Positions 43,553-60,202 of a stretch of 64,000 nt of DNA are shown in pieces. Source of the stretch: an uncultured Verrucomicrobiae bacterium (lineage in GTDB: Bacteria; Verrucomicrobiota; Verrucomicrobiia; Chthoniobacterales; UBA10450); assembly GCA_963772365.1 (NCBI GenBank), contig CAVYXA010000001.1, positions 160,001-224,000 of the forward strand, given 5' to 3'. The position numbers and the translations under genes are program-made. The notes beneath the pieces were generated by a model, which was not told the origin of the DNA, did not search any database, and worked only from the letters and a program-made list of their open reading frames with translations. Within the stretch, counting starts at the first letter, position 1. The number at the start of each line of letters is the position of its first letter.

Positions 43553-44343
43553 TTACTCGCGGTTGAAGACGTCAACTTCCTGCTTGCTCTCTTCCGGAAA
43601 GGTAATGGTCTCGGTCAACGTTTTCCCGTCCAATGAGACCTCCCATGCATCAGTCTCAGTGACTTTGCCTTTCAGTTTGTAGGTAAGCTCCATCTTGTTA
43701 TCGCCTGTCTTTTTGGCCGAGACCGTCGTGCCATGGGCAACGTTCGGGCCTTTTGGTGCATAGGCTTTCCCATCGGTTTTGAAGTTTGTTTCTTCCTTAT
43801 ACTCGGGGTTCTTCATTGAGTAGCCATCCGTTCCCGAGTTTTCGATTTCCATCGTGCCGGGCGATCCGATCTTGATCTCTGTGCTTTCCCAAGTGCCGAC
43901 CAATCCAGTGGTGCCGCCAGCGGTCCTCTTGAGTGTGATTACATCGTGAGAAGTAGAACCATCCGGTTTCGTCTCGGTCGTGTCGTAGGTGGAAGTAGCG
44001 CCATCCTGTGCCACAGTCCAAGTGGCGTCGGAGGCAGTCTTACCGTGGATTTTACGGATCCACTTAAAGGTGTTCGCGTTCTTTTTGGTGACCTCCCAGA
44101 TATTGCCAAACCTTGTCGTGTGCGGCTTGCCGTCGAGTGAGACGGTCTCAGCAGTGTCGCCGAACTTGAAGATCATTTTATTCTTGCCGGCATCTTCGAC
44201 CTTATAGCTAAGGCCGCTAAGCTGCCCTTCTCCGGGTTGAACTTCCATTTACCGGCGAAGGAATCGTCCGCGGCAAGTGACAGCGGCGCAGCGCCGAGGA
44301 AAAGGACCGCGATGGCGATAAGTGAGGTAGTGTTTGGTTTCAT
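43553..44343 (-). CDS. Secreted protein with two tandem lipocalin-like beta-barrel repeats, one frameshift near 44225
   Basis: Signal peptide MKPNTTSLIAIAVLFLGAAPLSLA; repeats FAGKWK / LVGTWE, DGK, and WTVAQDG / WEVSLDG. Confidence 0.75.
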
Positions 44344-47010: not shown

Positions 47011-47274
47011 TTAGATTCGCTTGTAGATGTCTCGCCTGTTCCCAACGTAGTGCAGATAGATTCGGCCCTGCCTCAGATCGAATTCGTAAATCACCCGATA
47101 ATCACCGACACGAAGTTTGAACTCCGGGCGCCCTTGCAACCGCTTGTGCCGAAAACTTTCCAGCCGCGCGCCCATTTCGTCCACCCTGCGCTGAACAGCT
47201 TCGCGAACAGAATCGGGAAGTGAGTCAAATGCTTTGGAGAAAGTCGGCGACCAAATCTGAAGGGCCGCGGCCAC
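47011..47274 (-). CDS. RelE/ParE family type II toxin
   Basis: FKLRVGDYRVIYE...VGNRRDIY motif. Confidence 0.9.
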   Translation of the reverse strand: MAAALQIWSPTFSKAFDSLPDSVREAVQRRVDEMGARLESFRHKRLQGRPEFKLRVGDYRVIYEFDLRQGRIYLHYVGNRRDIYKRI

Positions 47275-47277
47275 GAT

Positions 47278-47466
47278 CTACTTCGGCTGGCGGGTTGTGT
47301 ACTGGCCCGCGGCGATCTCGCCCCGGGATTGATCAAGCTTCGTTTTCACGTCGTCGGTCAATTCCAACTGATCTTCGAGATAATCCTCGATCCACTCGCG
47401 TATCTGCTCGATTTCCGCGCGCGACAAGTTCGGAATCGCCTCTTGGATTTCCTTAACCGTGCTCAC
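47278..47466 (-). CDS. Cognate antitoxin (small acidic protein)
   Basis: GTG start STVKEIQEAIPNLS...EIAAG, ending 3 nt before the toxin start. Confidence 0.75.
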   Translation of the reverse strand: MSTVKEIQEAIPNLSRAEIEQIREWIEDYLEDQLELTDDVKTKLDQSRGEIAAGQYTTRQPK

Positions 47467-47659
47467 GGCAAGGATGCTAACCCAAAGATTCGCCGATGAA
47501 AAGAGCGAGTCTGAAGCGTCCCCTATGGCTGGGTTTGTGATTTCTCCGAAATCCAAAAAACTCAGCCTTCTCCCATGAACCAGCGAGGTGGACGCAGGCC
47601 GTGTAAATCGCTTCGCTCCACGCGGCTTGTCTCAATACGCGGATAACACGCAGCAATTC

Positions 47660-48985: not shown

Positions 48986-49582
48986 TTAAGCCGAAGTTCG
49001 GTCTGTCTCCTGCAAAACGCGCGCGATGCGGCGATCCGGGACGAGCCACATTAACGCGACGAAGACGTAAATGCATCCGGCGATCCAGGCGCGGAAAAAG
49101 GAAGCCCCAATCGCGATGGCATATAGCACCGGAGATAATTTCCCTTTCCAATCTTTTCCGATTGCCGCGGCCAGCCGCGACTCGCAGCCGCCTTGCGAGG
49201 CGATGATCACGGTTTGCAGAACGTAATAGGCAATGGCGGCGAGCAGCAGCACTGCGCCATACAGTGCCGATGGCAACGGCTTGAATTCGTTTTCGCCCAT
49301 CCAGCCGGTAACGAACGGAAACAGCGAGAGCCAAAAGAGCAGGTGCAGATTTGCCCATAAGACACCGCCGTTTACCCGAGGAGATGCTTTCAACAGATGA
49401 TGATGATTGCTCCAGTAAATGCCGAGATAGATGAAGCTTAACACGTAGCTTAAGAACACGGGTAAAAGCGGGCGGAGCACCGCCAAATCCGGCCCGTGCG
49501 GCACTTTCAGTTCCAACACCATGATGGTGATGATGATTGCGAAAACTCCGTCGCTGAAGGCTTCGACCCGGTTGGTTTCCAT
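48986..49582 (-). CDS. TMEM175 family potassium channel
   Basis: RVEAFSDGVFAIIITIMVL and YWSNHHH motifs. Confidence 0.93.
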   Translation of the reverse strand: METNRVEAFSDGVFAIIITIMVLELKVPHGPDLAVLRPLLPVFLSYVLSFIYLGIYWSNHHHLLKASPRVNGGVLWANLHLLFWLSLFPFVTGWMGENEFKPLPSALYGAVLLLAAIAYYVLQTVIIASQGGCESRLAAAIGKDWKGKLSPVLYAIAIGASFFRAWIAGCIYVFVALMWLVPDRRIARVLQETDRTSA

Positions 49583-49739
49583 ATCGGCGATTGTTTGGCG
49601 AAAACTAAGCCGCAAGAGTTTCGGCGATCGTTAAGCGCTCGCAAATGTTTCCGCGCATGAGCCGTCGCTAGGATCGACAGTATCGGAGCCGCTCTGCAAG
49701 CAATGCTGCCTAGGCGTTCTGCGGAACTCTGTTTAGGAG

Positions 49740-50171: not shown

Positions 50172-50669
50172 CTAAGGAGGCGGTTTCTGGTCAGCTTTGT
50201 AAGCAAGAGCGGCGGCGGCAGCTCCTAAAACGATGCCGCCTAAAATGGCTATCACGGCTCGAATGCCCGATGTTAGACTGCCAGGCGCAACCGCGTCGAA
50301 TGCGGTCGCTTTCTGTAACATTGTCCACCCGACAAAAGCCAGCGGTGGAATCAGCATGCGGATCCAGTCCCAGCCATGCCATTTCGATTGGGGGAGGCGT
50401 CCCATCACATACAAAATGGCGCTGATTACGATCAGCCCATAAAAGGCCACCTTTAGCGCGCCCGGATCAGTTATTGTGACTGTTTGATTTCTGGTTTCGG
50501 TCGTGAACGTAAGGATCGCTCCATGGGCGGCGAGGACTTCAGCCGGGACAAGAGCGGCCAGAGCATCGGCATAGGTTTTTACCCCGGGCGAGCCACCTTG
50601 CTCTTTACTGGTGCCAGGCGGAGCCGCAGTCCGAAGACGAGTCATCGCGGCGTAAGCTAAAGTACTCAT
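50172..50669 (-). CDS. Hypothetical membrane protein, about 4 TM segments
   Basis: YADALAALVPAEV followed by hydrophobic helices. Confidence 0.75.
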   Translation of the reverse strand: MSTLAYAAMTRLRTAAPPGTSKEQGGSPGVKTYADALAALVPAEVLAAHGAILTFTTETRNQTVTITDPGALKVAFYGLIVISAILYVMGRLPQSKWHGWDWIRMLIPPLAFVGWTMLQKATAFDAVAPGSLTSGIRAVIAILGGIVLGAAAAALAYKADQKPPP

Positions 50670-52227: not shown

Positions 52228-52785
52228 CTAAGCCTGTCCCGGATCGTAGAAATGATCACTGCCGATATCGAACACGCGATTGAGCCGCGCTCGATAATTT
52301 TCAAATGCGATTTGTGCGCTCAGTTGCATCAATTGTTCTTCGGAAAATTGTCTGGTTAAACGCGCGTAAAGATCGTCGGAAATATTCGATGGTGCGGTCA
52401 CCATGGCGTCAGCCAGCTCAATCACTAAACGCTCCGGCTCGTTAAAGATCGACAAGTCGCTGCCAAGAACGGCTCGGAGTTTCTCATCGGTCAGGCCGGC
52501 TTTTCTGCCCACGGCAGAATTGATATCCATTCAGAAAGGACAACCGATCCGAGCGGCGGTGCGAACCTTTCCGAGCTGAATGTAGCGTAACGAAACGAGC
52601 CGTTTTTGGCGGAGTGCTAATTCCATGAGGATGCCGCCCCATACGACTCCCGGCACACGCATTTGAATTTTTACCGGGGTAAATTCTTTGCCGAACATTT
52701 TGCGCATCGTCCCGTAAAACCAGCGCAAATGCCACGGGGCCTGATTTCTTTCTAATCCCTGAATTCTCTCCATTAACGTCTCCAT
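52228..52785 (-). CDS. AhpD / carboxymuconolactone decarboxylase-like protein, probable selenoprotein (CxxU)
   Basis: ORFs 52531-52785 and 52228-52530 are in frame and separated only by one TGA: ...AARIGCPF-TGA-MDINSAVG... Confidence 0.85.
52503..52519 (-). promoter_or_regulatory. Bacterial SECIS-like hairpin
   Basis: UUCUGCC-GUG-GGCAGAA, a 7-bp stem with a G-initiated loop, starting 11 nt after the UGA. Confidence 0.75.
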
Positions 52786-53708: not shown

Positions 53709-54149
53709 TCAGGGTTGAACCGCGTGCCGCCGAATGTTGATCTCGGATGTGAGCGTGCGATGGACAGGGCATTTCCCGGCGATTTCCATGAGTTTGGCGC
53801 GTTGCTCTTGCGTCAGATCGCCGGTCAGCTCGATCGAGATGTCGATCCTGTCGAGCATGCCTTCTTTAGTTTCGCAATCTTTCGCGTGAATACGGGAATG
53901 CCACAGGGAAACAATAATATTTTCCAGCGGCCATTGTTTTCGCCGGGCATACAATCCCACGGTCATCGATGTACACACACCCAGCGAAATGAGCAGATAA
54001 TCGTACGGTCCGGGAGCGGCATCCTGGCCGCCGACATTTACGGGTTCATCTCCGCGCAGGTGATGTTTGCCGGTGACAACTTCCTGCAAAAATTCGCGCG
54101 CATTGCCGCGCACAATCACATGTGCAGGTTCAGTCAGCGGCTGCATCAT
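53709..54149 (-). CDS. OsmC family protein
   Basis: DEP...GG...PGPYDYLLISLGVCTSMT and KCPVHRTL motifs. Confidence 0.92.
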   Translation of the reverse strand: MMQPLTEPAHVIVRGNAREFLQEVVTGKHHLRGDEPVNVGGQDAAPGPYDYLLISLGVCTSMTVGLYARRKQWPLENIIVSLWHSRIHAKDCETKEGMLDRIDISIELTGDLTQEQRAKLMEIAGKCPVHRTLTSEINIRRHAVQP

Positions 54150-54837
54150 GCACGCGGTTTCTTTTTCGCGAACTGCCAAGAACCAGAAGGAGCCCAGCGG
54201 CAATGAGCGCAGTTGTCGCAGGCTCGGGCACGGCGCGGATATTATCGATCCCGAGCTGCCCGACGACGGGCACACCGCTCAAACTGTTTGTGCCGGGAGC
54301 ATGAATGAAGCGAACCTCACCGATGAAGAACGATTGCCACGGATCGGGAGTTCCCACCGGGATCAGGTCGGCAGGATTTAGTGAAATAGTGAAATGCTGC
54401 CAGCCACTGCCGACCGGCAATATCATGGCTTGCGTGAGATATCCCGATGCGCTGTTGCCGGGACCGTTTTTGAATGCCATTCGAATCGACAACTGCACGG
54501 TGCTTTGGTTGAGCAAGTCGACATCGATGGATGTTATTCCTATTCCAGGGTAATCGCCGAGCCACTGGTCGCGATTGAACACGGTGAGCTTGCCTCCAGA
54601 ACCGCTTCCATCGGAAGTCACTTGGATGTAGTGATCGCCAACTCCGCCCGGACCGCCATTGGGGATATTGGTGACCGGCGTTACTCCGATGATTCCTCCA
54701 TTGGTCCAATTTGCCGTTGTTCCATCCTGGAAATCGTCGATCTGCCCGATCACAATCGCGCTGGTGTGGCGGACGCACATCAACGAAACCAAAACAGCGA
54801 CGATAAAAGACGACCGAGACATGAGGGCGCAAATCAT
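54130..54837 (-). CDS. PEP-CTERM sorting domain protein
   Basis: Signal peptide; C-terminal VPEPATTALIAAGLLLVLGSSRKRNR. Confidence 0.9.
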   Translation of the reverse strand: MICALMSRSSFIVAVLVSLMCVRHTSAIVIGQIDDFQDGTTANWTNGGIIGVTPVTNIPNGGPGGVGDHYIQVTSDGSGSGGKLTVFNRDQWLGDYPGIGITSIDVDLLNQSTVQLSIRMAFKNGPGNSASGYLTQAMILPVGSGWQHFTISLNPADLIPVGTPDPWQSFFIGEVRFIHAPGTNSLSGVPVVGQLGIDNIRAVPEPATTALIAAGLLLVLGSSRKRNRVHDAAAD

Positions 54838-56742: not shown

Positions 56743-56758
56743 TTAACCAGATGGTTAA
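56743..56758. promoter_or_regulatory. Putative ArsR autoregulatory operator
   Basis: Perfect 7-2-7 inverted repeat TTAACCA-GA-TGGTTAA overlapping the arsR start codon. Confidence 0.75.
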
Positions 56759-57101
56759 ATATCCCTCAGCCAAATTGAATCGGACTTTCGCCGCTCTGGC
56801 CGACCCTACCCGCCGCCGCATTCTCGAACATCTCTCCCGCGGCAATCATCGCGTCACCCATCTCGCGCGGCCGCACGCGATGTCGTTGCCGGCCATTTCA
56901 AAACACTTGCGCGTGCTAGAGAAGGCAGGATTACTGCGCCGGCGCCGTTATGGACGCGTCCACGAAATGCAGTTGGACGCCGAGCCCTTGAAAAAGGCCG
57001 CGCAATGGGTCGAGGAGTATCGAAAGTTCTGGGAGGGATCGCTCGATCGGCTGGCGGCCTACTTGGAGAAAACGAACAATTCGAAGAAAGCAAAGGCCTG
57101 A
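56751..57101 (+). CDS. ArsR/SmtB family transcriptional regulator
   Basis: FAALADPTRRRIL, SLPAISKHLRVLEKAGL and FWEGSLDRL motifs. Confidence 0.95.
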   Translation: MVKYPSAKLNRTFAALADPTRRRILEHLSRGNHRVTHLARPHAMSLPAISKHLRVLEKAGLLRRRRYGRVHEMQLDAEPLKKAAQWVEEYRKFWEGSLDRLAAYLEKTNNSKKAKA

Positions 57102-57104
57102 GTC

Positions 57105-57332
57105 ATGTGCCCGGTATGCGTCGCAAATATTGCCGTTTTGGCAACAGCATCGAGTGGAGGACTCGCAGCGCTCGTTCTCAAAGTATTTCACGGAGAAAAA
57201 CAACCCAAAGAAGAAAGAGAAGAATATGAAACAAGCAGAAATGGAGACGCGAAAAATCGTATCGCCGAAGGAGTGGGAAGCTGCCCGCCAGAAACTTCTG
57301 ATGAAGGAAAAAGAGTTGACCCACGCTCGTGA
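57105..57332 (+). CDS. Small protein with N-terminal CxxC and a hydrophobic helix
   Basis: MCPVCVANIAVLATASSGGLAALVLKVF; starts 3 nt after the arsR stop and its tail overlaps the next gene. Confidence 0.55.
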   Translation: MCPVCVANIAVLATASSGGLAALVLKVFHGEKQPKEEREEYETSRNGDAKNRIAEGVGSCPPETSDEGKRVDPRS

Positions 57333-57990
57333 CGCGCTAGCCGCCGAGCGTCGGCGAATGCCGTGGGTGGCCGTGGAGAAGAAGTACCAATTCGAAGGAC
57401 CAAACGGCAAGGTGAGCCTGCTCGACCTCTTCAATGGCCGGCGTCAGCTAGTTATTTATCGCGCGTTCTTTGAGCCGGGCGTAGTCGGCTGGCCCGACCA
57501 CGCCTGCGTCGGCTGCTCGATGATGGCCGATCACGTTGGCAACCTTGCGCACGTGAACGCACGCGATACTACTGTCGTGTTCGCGTCACGCGCGCCGCAA
57601 AAGGAGATCGAACGTTTGAAGGCGCGGATGGGCTGGGAGCGCATTCCCTGGTACACAATCACAGACGACTTCGATAAAGATTTCGGCGTGGATGAATGGC
57701 ATGGCCACAACGCATTCATTCGCGACGGCGACAAAATATTCCGCACCTATTTCATCAATGGCCGCGGCGATGAAGCGATGGGGACCACCTGGAGTTACCT
57801 CGATATGACCGCGCTCGGTCGCCAGGAAGAATGGGAGGACTCGCCGAAGGGCTACCCTCAAACTCCGCCCTACGAATGGTGGAACTGGCACGACGAGTAT
57901 GGCAACGCCGAAGCTTCTGCCAAGGTCCGCGAACAAATTCGCCGCGGCCGCGAAGCCGGACAAGCGGCGACCAGGCCAAATGCTCGATAG
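57226..57990 (+). CDS. DUF899 thioredoxin-like protein
   Basis: KEKELT..RD.LAAERRRMPW, CVGCS, SRAP and TALGRQEEWE motifs. Confidence 0.92.
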   Translation: MKQAEMETRKIVSPKEWEAARQKLLMKEKELTHARDALAAERRRMPWVAVEKKYQFEGPNGKVSLLDLFNGRRQLVIYRAFFEPGVVGWPDHACVGCSMMADHVGNLAHVNARDTTVVFASRAPQKEIERLKARMGWERIPWYTITDDFDKDFGVDEWHGHNAFIRDGDKIFRTYFINGRGDEAMGTTWSYLDMTALGRQEEWEDSPKGYPQTPPYEWWNWHDEYGNAEASAKVREQIRRGREAGQAATRPNAR

Positions 57991-58013
57991 ACTTTGAGCA
58001 GAAAGATCGACAT

Positions 58014-58388
58014 ATGAATCGCGTAACTCATTTTGAAATTTACACGGCCGATCCTAAGCAGGTGCAGCCGTTTTACGAATCTGTTTTCGGCTGGAAGTTT
58101 CAGAAATTCGAAGGTGGTCCGCTTGAGTATTGGCTGATAACGACCGGTGACGATAAGAAACCGGGAATCAACGGCGGAATGACGCGTCCGCGCGAAGGAC
58201 AAAGCCCGGGCACGTTAAACACGGTCTCAGTTCAGTCGCTGGATCAAACGATCAAGAAGATTGAGCAACGCGGCGAAAAGATCTGCGTTCCGAAAATGGC
58301 GATACCGAAAGTCGGCTGGCTCGCTTATGCGGAAGATCCAGTTGGCAATGTCTTCGGAATCATCGAGCCGGACACAAACGCAAAATAA
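58014..58388 (+). CDS. VOC/glyoxalase family protein
   Basis: HFEI, FYESVFGW, GINGG and DPVGNVFGIIE motifs. Confidence 0.92.
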   Translation: MNRVTHFEIYTADPKQVQPFYESVFGWKFQKFEGGPLEYWLITTGDDKKPGINGGMTRPREGQSPGTLNTVSVQSLDQTIKKIEQRGEKICVPKMAIPKVGWLAYAEDPVGNVFGIIEPDTNAK

Positions 58389-58399
58389 AAAACCAATCT

Positions 58400-58843
58400 A
58401 TGACTACAAAAGCCGAATCAGCTGACGCAGTAACAATCGAACGCACTTTCGATGCGCCGGTCGTGAAAGTTTGGAAAGCGCTGACCGATGTCGATCAAAT
58501 GCGGGAGTGGTACTTCGATCTGAAAGAATTCAAACCCGAAGCCGGCTTTGAATTTGAATTCACGATCGAGCACGAAGGAAATTCTTATCATCATCTTTGC
58601 AAAGTCACGGAAGTGATTCCGCAAAAGAAAATCGCTTACACCTGGCGTTACAAAGGCGAGCCCGGCGATTCATTGGTCACGATTAAATTAACGCCGGAGG
58701 GCGAAAAGACGCGTTTGAAGCTGACGCACACCGGAATTGAAACGTTTCCGAAAACGCCAGCCTACGCGCGGAAGAACTTCGAGCAGGGCTGGACTGCGAT
58801 CATCGGCACCGAGCTCAAACAATTCGTCGAAAGGAAAACGTAA
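58400..58843 (+). CDS. SRPBCC/AHSA1 domain protein
   Basis: IERTFDAPVVKVWKALTD...W...TRLKLTH...GW. Confidence 0.92.
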   Translation: MTTKAESADAVTIERTFDAPVVKVWKALTDVDQMREWYFDLKEFKPEAGFEFEFTIEHEGNSYHHLCKVTEVIPQKKIAYTWRYKGEPGDSLVTIKLTPEGEKTRLKLTHTGIETFPKTPAYARKNFEQGWTAIIGTELKQFVERKT

Positions 58844-59328
58844 TGGCAAAACAAACCCAATCATTGTCAGCAAACACCGTCCGGTTGCACCGCGTCCTGC
58901 GGGCGACGCCGGAAAAGGTGTATCGCGCGTTTCTCAATCCGGAGGCGCTGGCGAAATGGCTTCCGCCGAACGGATTCACCTGCAAAGTGCATGAGATGAA
59001 CGCGAAGGTCGGCGGCGGCTTTAAGATGTCGTTCACGAACTTCAGCAGCGGCAAGAGTCACTCCTTCGGCGGAACCTACGTCGAGCTAACGCCGCACGAA
59101 TTCATTCGTTACACCGAAAAGTTCGACGATCCGAATCTGCCCGGCGAAATGCAAACGACGATCACATTTAAAAGAGTTTCGTGCGGAACGGAAGTCACCA
59201 TCGTGCAAGAAGGAATTCCCGCTGCGATTCCGGCCGACGCTTGTTATCTCGGCTGGCAGGAATCGTTGATCCTGTTGGCGAAACTCGTCGAAGCTGAAAT
59301 TCCAGATCAGGAAGGAAACGGCCGATGA
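58843..59328 (+). CDS. SRPBCC/AHSA1 domain protein
   Basis: LHRVLRATPEKVYRAF...KWLPPNGF...CYLGWQESL. Confidence 0.92.
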   Translation: MAKQTQSLSANTVRLHRVLRATPEKVYRAFLNPEALAKWLPPNGFTCKVHEMNAKVGGGFKMSFTNFSSGKSHSFGGTYVELTPHEFIRYTEKFDDPNLPGEMQTTITFKRVSCGTEVTIVQEGIPAAIPADACYLGWQESLILLAKLVEAEIPDQEGNGR

Positions 59329-59759
59329 AAATTCCGTTTAGCGGCGGCTGCGCGTGCGGCGCGATTCGTTACGAGTGCGCGGCTGAGCCAACCCTGATGT
59401 TGAAATGTCATTGTCGCGATTGTCAGCATGTGACGGGAGGCGGATTCGCTCCGGCAATAGTGGTGCCGGCAAAATCGTTTCGATTGACGCGCGGACAGTT
59501 GCGCTACCATTTCACTCCGAGCATCGCACGCGGAAAACATAAACGCGGGTTTTGTCCCGAATGTGGGTCGCGAATTTCCGGAGCTGAATTCGAAGGAGAG
59601 ACATCGGAGTCTGTCGGAATTCTCGCTGGCAGCCTGGACGACCCAAGCTGGTTTCAACCGGAAATGGATATTTTCGTTTCGGACGCGCAGCCCTGGGATC
59701 TCATGGACCCTAATTTGCCCAAATACGCGGAGTATCCGCCATTCAAAAAATCAAAATGA
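59325..59759 (+). CDS. GFA (glutathione-dependent formaldehyde-activating) family protein
   Basis: GGCACGAIRY, CHCRDCQ and FCPECGS motifs. Confidence 0.93.
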   Translation: MKIPFSGGCACGAIRYECAAEPTLMLKCHCRDCQHVTGGGFAPAIVVPAKSFRLTRGQLRYHFTPSIARGKHKRGFCPECGSRISGAEFEGETSESVGILAGSLDDPSWFQPEMDIFVSDAQPWDLMDPNLPKYAEYPPFKKSK

Positions 59760-60202
59760 GAACAGAAGAAAAGACGAGCCTGGAAATCAAGCGATTCATC
59801 AAGGCGCCGCGCGCACGGGTTTACGCCGCTTGGACCGATCCGGCGCAATTGAAACAGTGGTGGGGACCAGAAGGGGCGCGGACCCGTAATTTTACTGCCG
59901 ACGTGCGCGTGGGCGGAAAATATCGCTGGGACCTGATTAATCAGGAAGGCGAAGAGATGAGCGCGTACGGCGAATACCAGGCGTTGATCCCGGACAAGAA
60001 AATCGTTTTCACTTGGAAATGGGACGACGACGAAGATTGGAAGAATGTGAACAGTGTGGTCACGGTGGAACTCTCCGACCGCGACGGCGGAACGGAGCTG
60101 CGCTTCAGCCACGAGAAATTGCCGAGTGAAGCCTCGCGCGATCGTCACAATGAAGGCTGGAACAGCGTGCTTGATCGTTTGGAGAAATTTTTCAACAAGT
60201 AA
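59756..60202 (+). CDS. SRPBCC/AHSA1 domain protein
   Basis: APRARVYAAWTDP...WWGP...HNEGW. Confidence 0.92.
   Translation: MRTEEKTSLEIKRFIKAPRARVYAAWTDPAQLKQWWGPEGARTRNFTADVRVGGKYRWDLINQEGEEMSAYGEYQALIPDKKIVFTWKWDDDEDWKNVNSVVTVELSDRDGGTELRFSHEKLPSEASRDRHNEGWNSVLDRLEKFFNK

Follow-up and report, generated by a model that had tools for sequence, protein, structure and literature searches.

Selenoproteins built on the AhpD/CMD fold have been recorded in several surveys. A review published in 2026 lists AhpD-like, CMD-like, distant-AhpD and AhpD-related families with a CxxU motif, the AhpD-like family appearing in its Table 1 with TIGR01926 (PMC13188914). Ocean samples (GOS) were reported to hold 299 AhpD-like 1 (COG2128) and 70 AhpD-like 2 selenoproteins (PMC2398784), and a survey of 2016 counted the AhpD-like family in 16 organisms (PMC5029168). 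The family is also present in BSepDB, which was built from 64,762 genomes including those of Pyrinomonadaceae (PMC13326102), and which may already list genes such as the one described here. The statement in the initial annotation that AhpD-like selenoprotein families exist is thus covered by these catalogues, and the class is already known. Among the Cys-type proteins of this fold, AhpD uses a relay of Glu, Cys, Cys and His plus a water molecule, the His does not vary among six AhpD-like structures, and the peroxidase activity of PA0269 is weak (PMC3141380). Bmp8, another CMD homologue, is described as a dehalogenating enzyme (debrominase) (PMC7918430).

The gene described here resembles the AhpD-like CxxU family in its AhpD/CMD fold, its length of about 180 aa, the predicted Sec at the second position of the CxxC motif and the wide occurrence of Cys homologues. 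However, the members of that family described in these surveys are marine or rare in isolates, whereas the clade of our gene is found in soil-type bins of Verrucomicrobiota and Acidobacteriota. Our protein also scores only 17.3 bits against TIGR01926, for which the cut-off is 81.8; the AhpD-like family is set apart here by this score and by the published descriptions.

The gene lies on the minus strand of the window, that is, the whole stretch of 64,000 nucleotides that was analysed, and the plus strand at this place is full of stops; the initial annotation had named no strand. An 84-aa ORF (52785-52534) and a 100-aa ORF (52530-52231) are in frame with each other and are separated by a single TGA (52533-52531), with GCPF before the TGA and MDINS after it; the second ORF begins MDINSAVG. 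The features are as follows.

52228..52773, minus strand: complete coding region of an AhpD/CMD-fold protein, interrupted by a single in-frame TGA; 181 aa from the likely start at Met5
52780..52783, minus strand: likely ribosome-binding site GGAG, judged from the sequence, 6 nt 5' of Met5
52540..52542, minus strand: Cys82 codon, opening the CxxU motif; Cys in 80/80 TGA loci (best 80 of 142) and in 59/59 distant relatives
52531..52533, minus strand: in-frame TGA, putative Sec codon (U85); TGA in 80/80 loci (best 80 of 142), Cys in 57/59 distant relatives
52503..52519, minus strand: putative bacterial SECIS, a 17-nt hairpin with a 7-bp stem and a GUG loop (52512-52510), 11 nt after the TGA
52228..52230, minus strand: true stop codon TAG, from the translation

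An alternative upstream start, the ATG at 52785, would give a protein of 185 aa, and the residue numbers used here (Cys82, Sec85) follow that form. Because 78 of 80 homologous loci (best 80 of 142) begin with an ATG at the position of Met5 and the GGAG lies just upstream of it, the protein probably starts at Met5 and has 181 aa. The read-through product that was proposed initially, of about 185 aa, would accordingly be slightly shorter. In a sequence search, the solved AhpD-like structures have a Cys aligned with the TGA column. The sequence and the Cys homologues thus agree with the initial annotation in placing one TGA, between two ORFs, at the second Cys of the CxxC motif, and the 7-bp hairpin with a GUG loop that it had noted 11 nt further on is present at 52519-52503.

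A scan of species-representative genomes, in which six search patterns were used (one of them the Cys form), gave 142 related stretches, and the best 80, from 79 genomes, were analysed. These 80 loci belong to Acidobacteriota (40, mostly Pyrinomonadaceae), Verrucomicrobiota (37, comprising Chthoniobacterales, Ca. Udaeobacter and unclassified Verrucomicrobiae) and Nitrospirota (1), with 2 lacking a phylum label. They are 71-87% identical to the query and are conserved in both halves. TGA occupies the Sec column in every one of the best 80 of 142 loci, while their terminal stops are divided among TGA (31), TAG (27) and TAA (22). Because the terminal stops are mixed and the internal codon is always TGA, the internal codon does not behave as a stop. 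Since 80 independent assemblies (best 80 of 142 loci) share the TGA, an error at this codon is excluded in practice. In the window's own family, one TGA was found in all 36 genomes whose match covers the column; in several members of the family the gene is incomplete or broken by a frameshift. In one bin (G185), the gene occurs on separate contigs in as many as three nearly identical copies, which may be a duplication or a redundancy of the bin.

The Cys counterparts come from a profile search, of which the best 150 representatives were used. Below 50% identity, 59 of them span the motif, and CxxC is present in 57 of these 59 distant relatives. The pairing of Cys and TGA at this column with a conserved hairpin, which had been named as a check on the initial proposal, was therefore observed, the stem being kept in 73 of the best 80 of 142 loci. 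Database matches to the gene are mostly of half length, and the 100-aa half is recorded as a separate protein. The presence of the gene on record mostly as halves is a systematic annotation error.

We compared the hairpin with the published bSECIS model, which asks for a loop of 3-9 nt, a stem of 4-16 bp, a G in the first two loop positions, a spacing of 16-37 nt and an MFE of -7.5 or below (PMC13188914, section 5). The hairpin has a loop of 3 nt (GUG), a stem of 7 bp and a spacing of 18 nt, and the 36-nt piece folds at -9.1 kcal/mol, so that it agrees with all the published constraints. The pattern itself is uncommon: among 21,595 candidate in-frame TGAs of the host genome, 11 are followed by a stem of at least 7 bp with a G at +19, and 94 by a stem of at least 5 bp that is capped by a GUN triloop. 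The folding energy is not exceptional compared with shuffled sequences (z -0.1 to -0.8). We therefore dropped the energy as proof, and the case for the hairpin rests on its conservation.

Among the best 80 of 142 loci, all seven stem pairs are intact in 73 and the loop is GUN in 80. The stem codons of these loci are nearly frozen (Ser90 TCT in 80/80, Gly93 GGC in 80/80, Arg94 AGA or AGG in 79/79 and Ala91 GCC in 73/79) and have the lowest synonymous entropies of the gene. All four codons are used for Val92, the third base of which lies in the loop, and four-fold sites outside the stem have a mean identity of 39% in the same best 80 of 142 loci. The related loci are kin and not independent, and these counts of conservation are no statistical tests. 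No two-sided compensatory change was seen in any of the seven pairs among 22 sequences, but covariation is uninformative here because the stem barely varies and sits on invariant residues. In the Cys-type genes compared (n=9, 26-31% identity), only 1-3 of the same seven positions pair.

The hairpin resembles the SECIS of the E. coli fdhF type in being placed in the coding sequence just past the UGA and in having GU in a small apical loop; it differs from that type in its perfect, bulge-free stem and its triloop. The fdhF SECIS has a spacer of 11 nt and a size of 17 nt, the same as found here. These values also equal those of the hairpin in the host genome's own formate dehydrogenase gene.

The host genome (3.35 Mb, 90% complete) contains the genes needed to read such a codon and further candidates for selenoproteins.

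G000:C3:484104-479693, minus strand: selC-selD-selA-selB cluster, a 4.4-kb block, from profile matches and tRNA prediction
G000:C3:479693-484385, minus strand: the cluster together with a SelW-like CxxU gene of 78 aa that precedes it and has an in-frame TGA
G000:C1:155241-158282, minus strand: formate dehydrogenase alpha subunit (FDH-alpha), TGA at C1:157718, 8-bp hairpin with a GUC loop
G000:C1:249227-249643, plus strand: Prx-like (AhpC/TSA) gene with a U-P-L-C (UxxC) motif, TGA at 249371, 7-bp hairpin; fifth selenoprotein candidate

The initial annotation had implied that selA, selB, selC and selD would be found elsewhere in this genome, and they are, in one cluster on C3. The matches to selA, selB and selD are above the profile cut-offs, SelB carries the winged-helix domain SelB-wing_3, and the tRNA-Sec has the anticodon UCA. 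It adjoins selD and is the only UCA-anticodon tRNA detected by ARAGORN at default stringency, while relaxed settings yielded noise; elsewhere in the genome TGA is used as an ordinary stop. The selD gene has an in-frame TGA of its own. The hairpins after the TGAs have the loops GUC at +20 in FDH, GUG at +19 in the AhpD-like gene, GUU at +23 in the SelW-like gene and GUU at +34 in selD, and that of the Prx-like gene has a five-base loop, AGUUG, at +17 with GU in the second position. The genome thus has at least five selenoprotein genes. Five is a lower bound because the de novo scan missed the Prx-like gene, which was recovered by a family search. The TGA-bearing FDH-alpha gene lies about 2 kb before the window; similarity in its frame fades near residue 990, possibly by a frameshift. 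In the first part of the same contig (G000:C1, about 1-60000), the peptides resemble by eye those of an organism of higher GC than the rest, which may indicate foreign or mis-joined DNA.

Among the 79 genomes behind the best 80 of 142 loci, selA was found in 73; in the other six, selB was found in 2, and selA, selB and selD were all not found in 4. A TGA-bearing FDH is present in three of these four sel-negative hosts. The fourth (G090) is apparently one and the same genome as G246, in which such an FDH also occurs. A second sample consisted of 146 genomes from the family to which the window belongs, each at least 90% complete; this sample and the 79-genome host set overlap in their carriers of the gene. 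Two of the genomes counted (G008 and G201) are unpublished, and none of our statements depends on either one alone. selB is present in 102 of the 146 (about 70%), and close orthologues of the gene (at least 60% identity, counted by hand) are present in 38 of the 146. The proportion with selB is 33/38 among these carriers compared to 69/108 among the non-carriers. In the remaining 5 of the 38 carriers, in which selB is absent, selA was also not found; a TGA-bearing FDH is present in three of them, a fragment in one and none in one. In all, the TGA gene was seen without detected sel genes in G224, G228, G239, G243, G246, G076 and G109, most of which keep a TGA-bearing FDH. The simplest reading is that the sel-negative carriers are incomplete bins that miss the one sel block, which can be lost whole because the sel genes sit together in 4.4 kb; a recent loss of the Sec trait in these carriers is also conceivable. 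The distribution of selB is patchy by genus, with 18/18 and 11/11 in two genera and 4/22 and 4/13 in two others. In the genus with 4/22, no orthologue of the gene was found, and two of its sel-negative genomes are also without FDH.

Use of Sec was taken in the initial annotation to be remarkable for a soil verrucomicrobium. This agrees with the 2016 survey, in whose tabulation SelD and both Sec columns are positive in 3 of 34 Verrucomicrobia and Chthoniobacter flavus is negative (PMC5029168). However, with selB in 102 of the 146 family genomes, the trait is common in this lineage and not exceptional. The same survey states that oxygen and Sec use are not strongly linked, while the later review describes selenoproteins as rarely kept by aerobes (PMC13188914). 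Our search of the openly accessible literature found no report of Sec use in Ca. Udaeobacter or Chthoniobacterales.

The encoded protein matches Pfam CMD (PF02627) at 29 bits against a cut-off of 23, and this gene is the only CMD-family match in the host genome. None of the NCBIfam cut-offs was reached by the clade. The best NCBIfam model is NF053654, the YciW-related (seleno)protein (GroundWater_YciW), which is covered nearly in full length, with residues 5-180 aligned to positions 1-177 of 179 (E 1e-26); the score is 93.7 bits, compared to a cut-off of 310, and the Cys relatives score 79-144 bits. On these sequence scores, the clade is a sister group of NF053654 and not a member. The CMD-like / AhpD-like 2 family (PF02627) has CxxU on the same helix pair. 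Against the GSU3128 family (NF041047), a model of 84 positions, the clade scores 22 bits compared to 110, and the AhpD-related model NF041238 gave no match at E 0.01. As judged from these profiles, the gene is assigned to the broad AhpD-like/CMD-like CxxU class, and no curated narrow family tested fits it.

In a structure model with Cys in place of Sec (mean pLDDT 73, above 80 over residues 61-170, poor at the N-terminus), the protein is all-helical, and helices 66-80 and 83-95 form a two-helix motif that carries the CxxU. The fold matches are Atu0492 and PA0269 (TM 0.58-0.63 of the query) and Bmp8 (TM 0.55), and a sequence search against solved structures returned the same three, with Bmp8 second-best at E 2e-6. 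In a quick, unrooted tree of 62 rows, a single group on a long branch (SH-aLRT 100) contains the 26 TGA proteins together with three entries that read Cys. These three are placed separately inside the group, which would fit rare reversion or sequence error. In some distant Cys relatives (P0160, P0171, P0177, P0206 and P0242), the protein is fused at its N-terminus to a hydrophobic domain of some 140 aa that has conserved His residues and offered no hint of function; no Pfam model was over its cut-off for this domain, and one of them showed a weak match to DUF4345. No fused form was found with this query among proteins of 325-2000 aa, which is weak evidence.

Atu0492 (2GMY), PA0269 (2IJC/2O4D/7XW1) and the AhpD of M. 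tuberculosis have CxxC at the same position, and the first two share the fold. Compared to these AhpD-type peroxidases, with which it is 21-24% identical, our protein has the predicted Sec instead of the second Cys, and Gln70 and Asn89 stand in place of the relay Glu and His. The positions tested were Glu at -12 from the first Cys and His at +4 from the second, and in the best 80 of 142 loci they are Gln in 80/80 and Asn in 79/80. The His position of the nearest Cys relatives is Gly in 48 of the 59 drawn from the best 150 representatives. We rejected the idea that the His/Glu relay became dispensable through Sec, since these Cys relatives also lack the His; the loss of the relay is for this reason common to the entire branch and was not caused by Sec. 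With the relay missing, a classical peroxidase reading is weakened and other chemistry is open.

The genomic context gives no clue to the substrate. The upstream genes on this strand encode an EamA transporter, an OsmC of the Cys type (53709-54275) and a PEP-CTERM protein, and a POT transporter gene lies downstream. The OsmC gene is indeed two genes upstream, as initially described, with EamA between, but a linkage is not borne out: among the best 80 of 142 loci, OsmC recurs as a neighbour in 0, EamA in 1 and POT in 0. A linkage to any of the three was accordingly dropped. The neighbours that do recur, named by eye as acyltransferase-like, kinase-like, gluconokinase-like and Fpg-like, look like lineage synteny, and no conserved partner gene was found among the neighbours of the best 80 of 142 loci. 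A recurring ahpC neighbour, as in AhpD-type peroxidases, was not found among the 30 commonest neighbour clusters. Other features were seen in the window.

47011-47556, minus strand: toxin gene of the ParE/RelE type (87 aa, PF05016), preceded by a small ORF that lacks annotation, with which it likely forms a type II toxin-antitoxin pair
48986-49615, minus strand: TMEM175-family potassium channel gene
50172-50669, minus strand: 165-aa membrane-like ORF, no Pfam match
43553-44248, minus strand: 231-aa Thr/Lys-rich ORF, no Pfam match
56751-60202, plus strand: ArsR-like regulator, then DUF899-like and glyoxalase-like genes and a number of SRPBCC-like ones, the names being assigned by eye to the translations

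On the present evidence, the two ORFs very probably form one Sec gene, directed by the hairpin and by selABCD, for a predicted oxidoreductase of the AhpD/CMD fold, and it is almost certain that the UGA itself is decoded as Sec. The conserved TGA and hairpin, the sel cluster and the co-occurrence support the Sec-dependent reading put forward initially. Frameshifted members of the family might suggest a pseudogene, or a sequencing error, with a nonsense change in a Cys codon; however, the same TGA occurs in 80/80 of the best 80 of 142 loci in two phyla, where both halves keep 71-87% identity while synonymous sites are saturated, and this conservation refutes the idea, the chance of which is negligible. 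Two translationally coupled genes, an N-terminal peptide of 80 aa ending at the UGA and a 100-aa protein starting from the next ATG, would agree with the ATG that directly follows the TGA in the host genome and with the half-length database records. This is highly improbable, because the codon after the TGA is ATG, GTG or TTG in only 20 of the best 80 of 142 loci and ATG in none, neither TAA nor TAG ever stands at the internal position in these loci whereas the terminal stop is mixed, and the break would fall at the second Cys and divide the pair of catalytic helices. A suppressor or an alternative code might instead have UGA read as Cys or Trp. This reading could be drawn from the many full-length database entries with Trp at this column and the three with Cys, and from the few genomes that have the TGA gene without sel genes in their assembly. 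The entries with Trp most probably arose where gene callers applied another code to short contigs. Moreover, no UCA tRNA other than the tRNA-Sec next to selD was found at default stringency, the genome uses TGA as an ordinary stop, most of the sel-negative assemblies still have a TGA-bearing FDH and could have lost the 4.4-kb block whole, and the two sel-negative genomes of the genus without the gene are also without a TGA-bearing FDH. We regard this reading as more improbable still than coupled genes.

What the Sec enzyme does is a separate matter. Redox catalysis at the CxxU is quite probable from the fold and the motif, and a peroxide or a disulfide as the substrate is somewhat favoured by analogy with AhpD chemistry. 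A selenoprotein that is not a peroxidase, in which the Sec centre on the same fold serves, for example, Bmp8-like reductive dehalogenation or the handling of metals and metalloids, is consistent with the rank of Bmp8 among the solved structures and with the missing relay His in the clade and its nearest Cys relatives, so that the substrate may differ throughout this branch. We consider it unlikely: Atu0492 and PA0269 outscore Bmp8 by fold, and no halogenase, arsenic or metal gene recurs among the neighbours of the best 80 of 142 loci. In Bmp8, a His three residues past the second Cys has a catalytic role. This position is Ile or Val in the clade, with Ala also seen. A broader version is doubtful and less likely again, namely that the gene represents a nearly Sec-only AhpD/YciW branch without a curated model, in soil Chthoniobacterales and Acidobacteriota, which lost the relay, carries out other selenol chemistry (reductive dehalogenation like that of Bmp8 or deiodinase) and is split in two by gene callers.

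Delivery of Sec by SelB is an established mechanism, and we infer that it operates here. For the preferred reading as a Sec-dependent oxidoreductase, the complex of SelB, GTP and Sec-tRNA would recognise the GU loop and bring Sec to the UGA. Sec85 would then act as the nucleophile on a substrate in its oxidised form, for which a peroxide or a disulfide is most likely. With Cys82 as the resolving thiol, the adduct would be resolved as a selenenylsulfide, which a cellular reductant would recycle.

The mechanism is not new and the class has long been known. The finding adds to the AhpD-like selenoproteins a tight, soil-associated branch with a very clean natural SECIS, in which the stem is frozen and one loop base is free. 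Because about 70% of the family genomes carry selB and at least five selenoprotein genes are present in this small one, compared to the rarity in earlier accounts, soil selenium is possibly a factor for these verrucomicrobia. Should the doubtful case of a selenol branch with a different chemistry prove true, it would mean a hidden selenium-dependent activity in very common aerobic soil bacteria.
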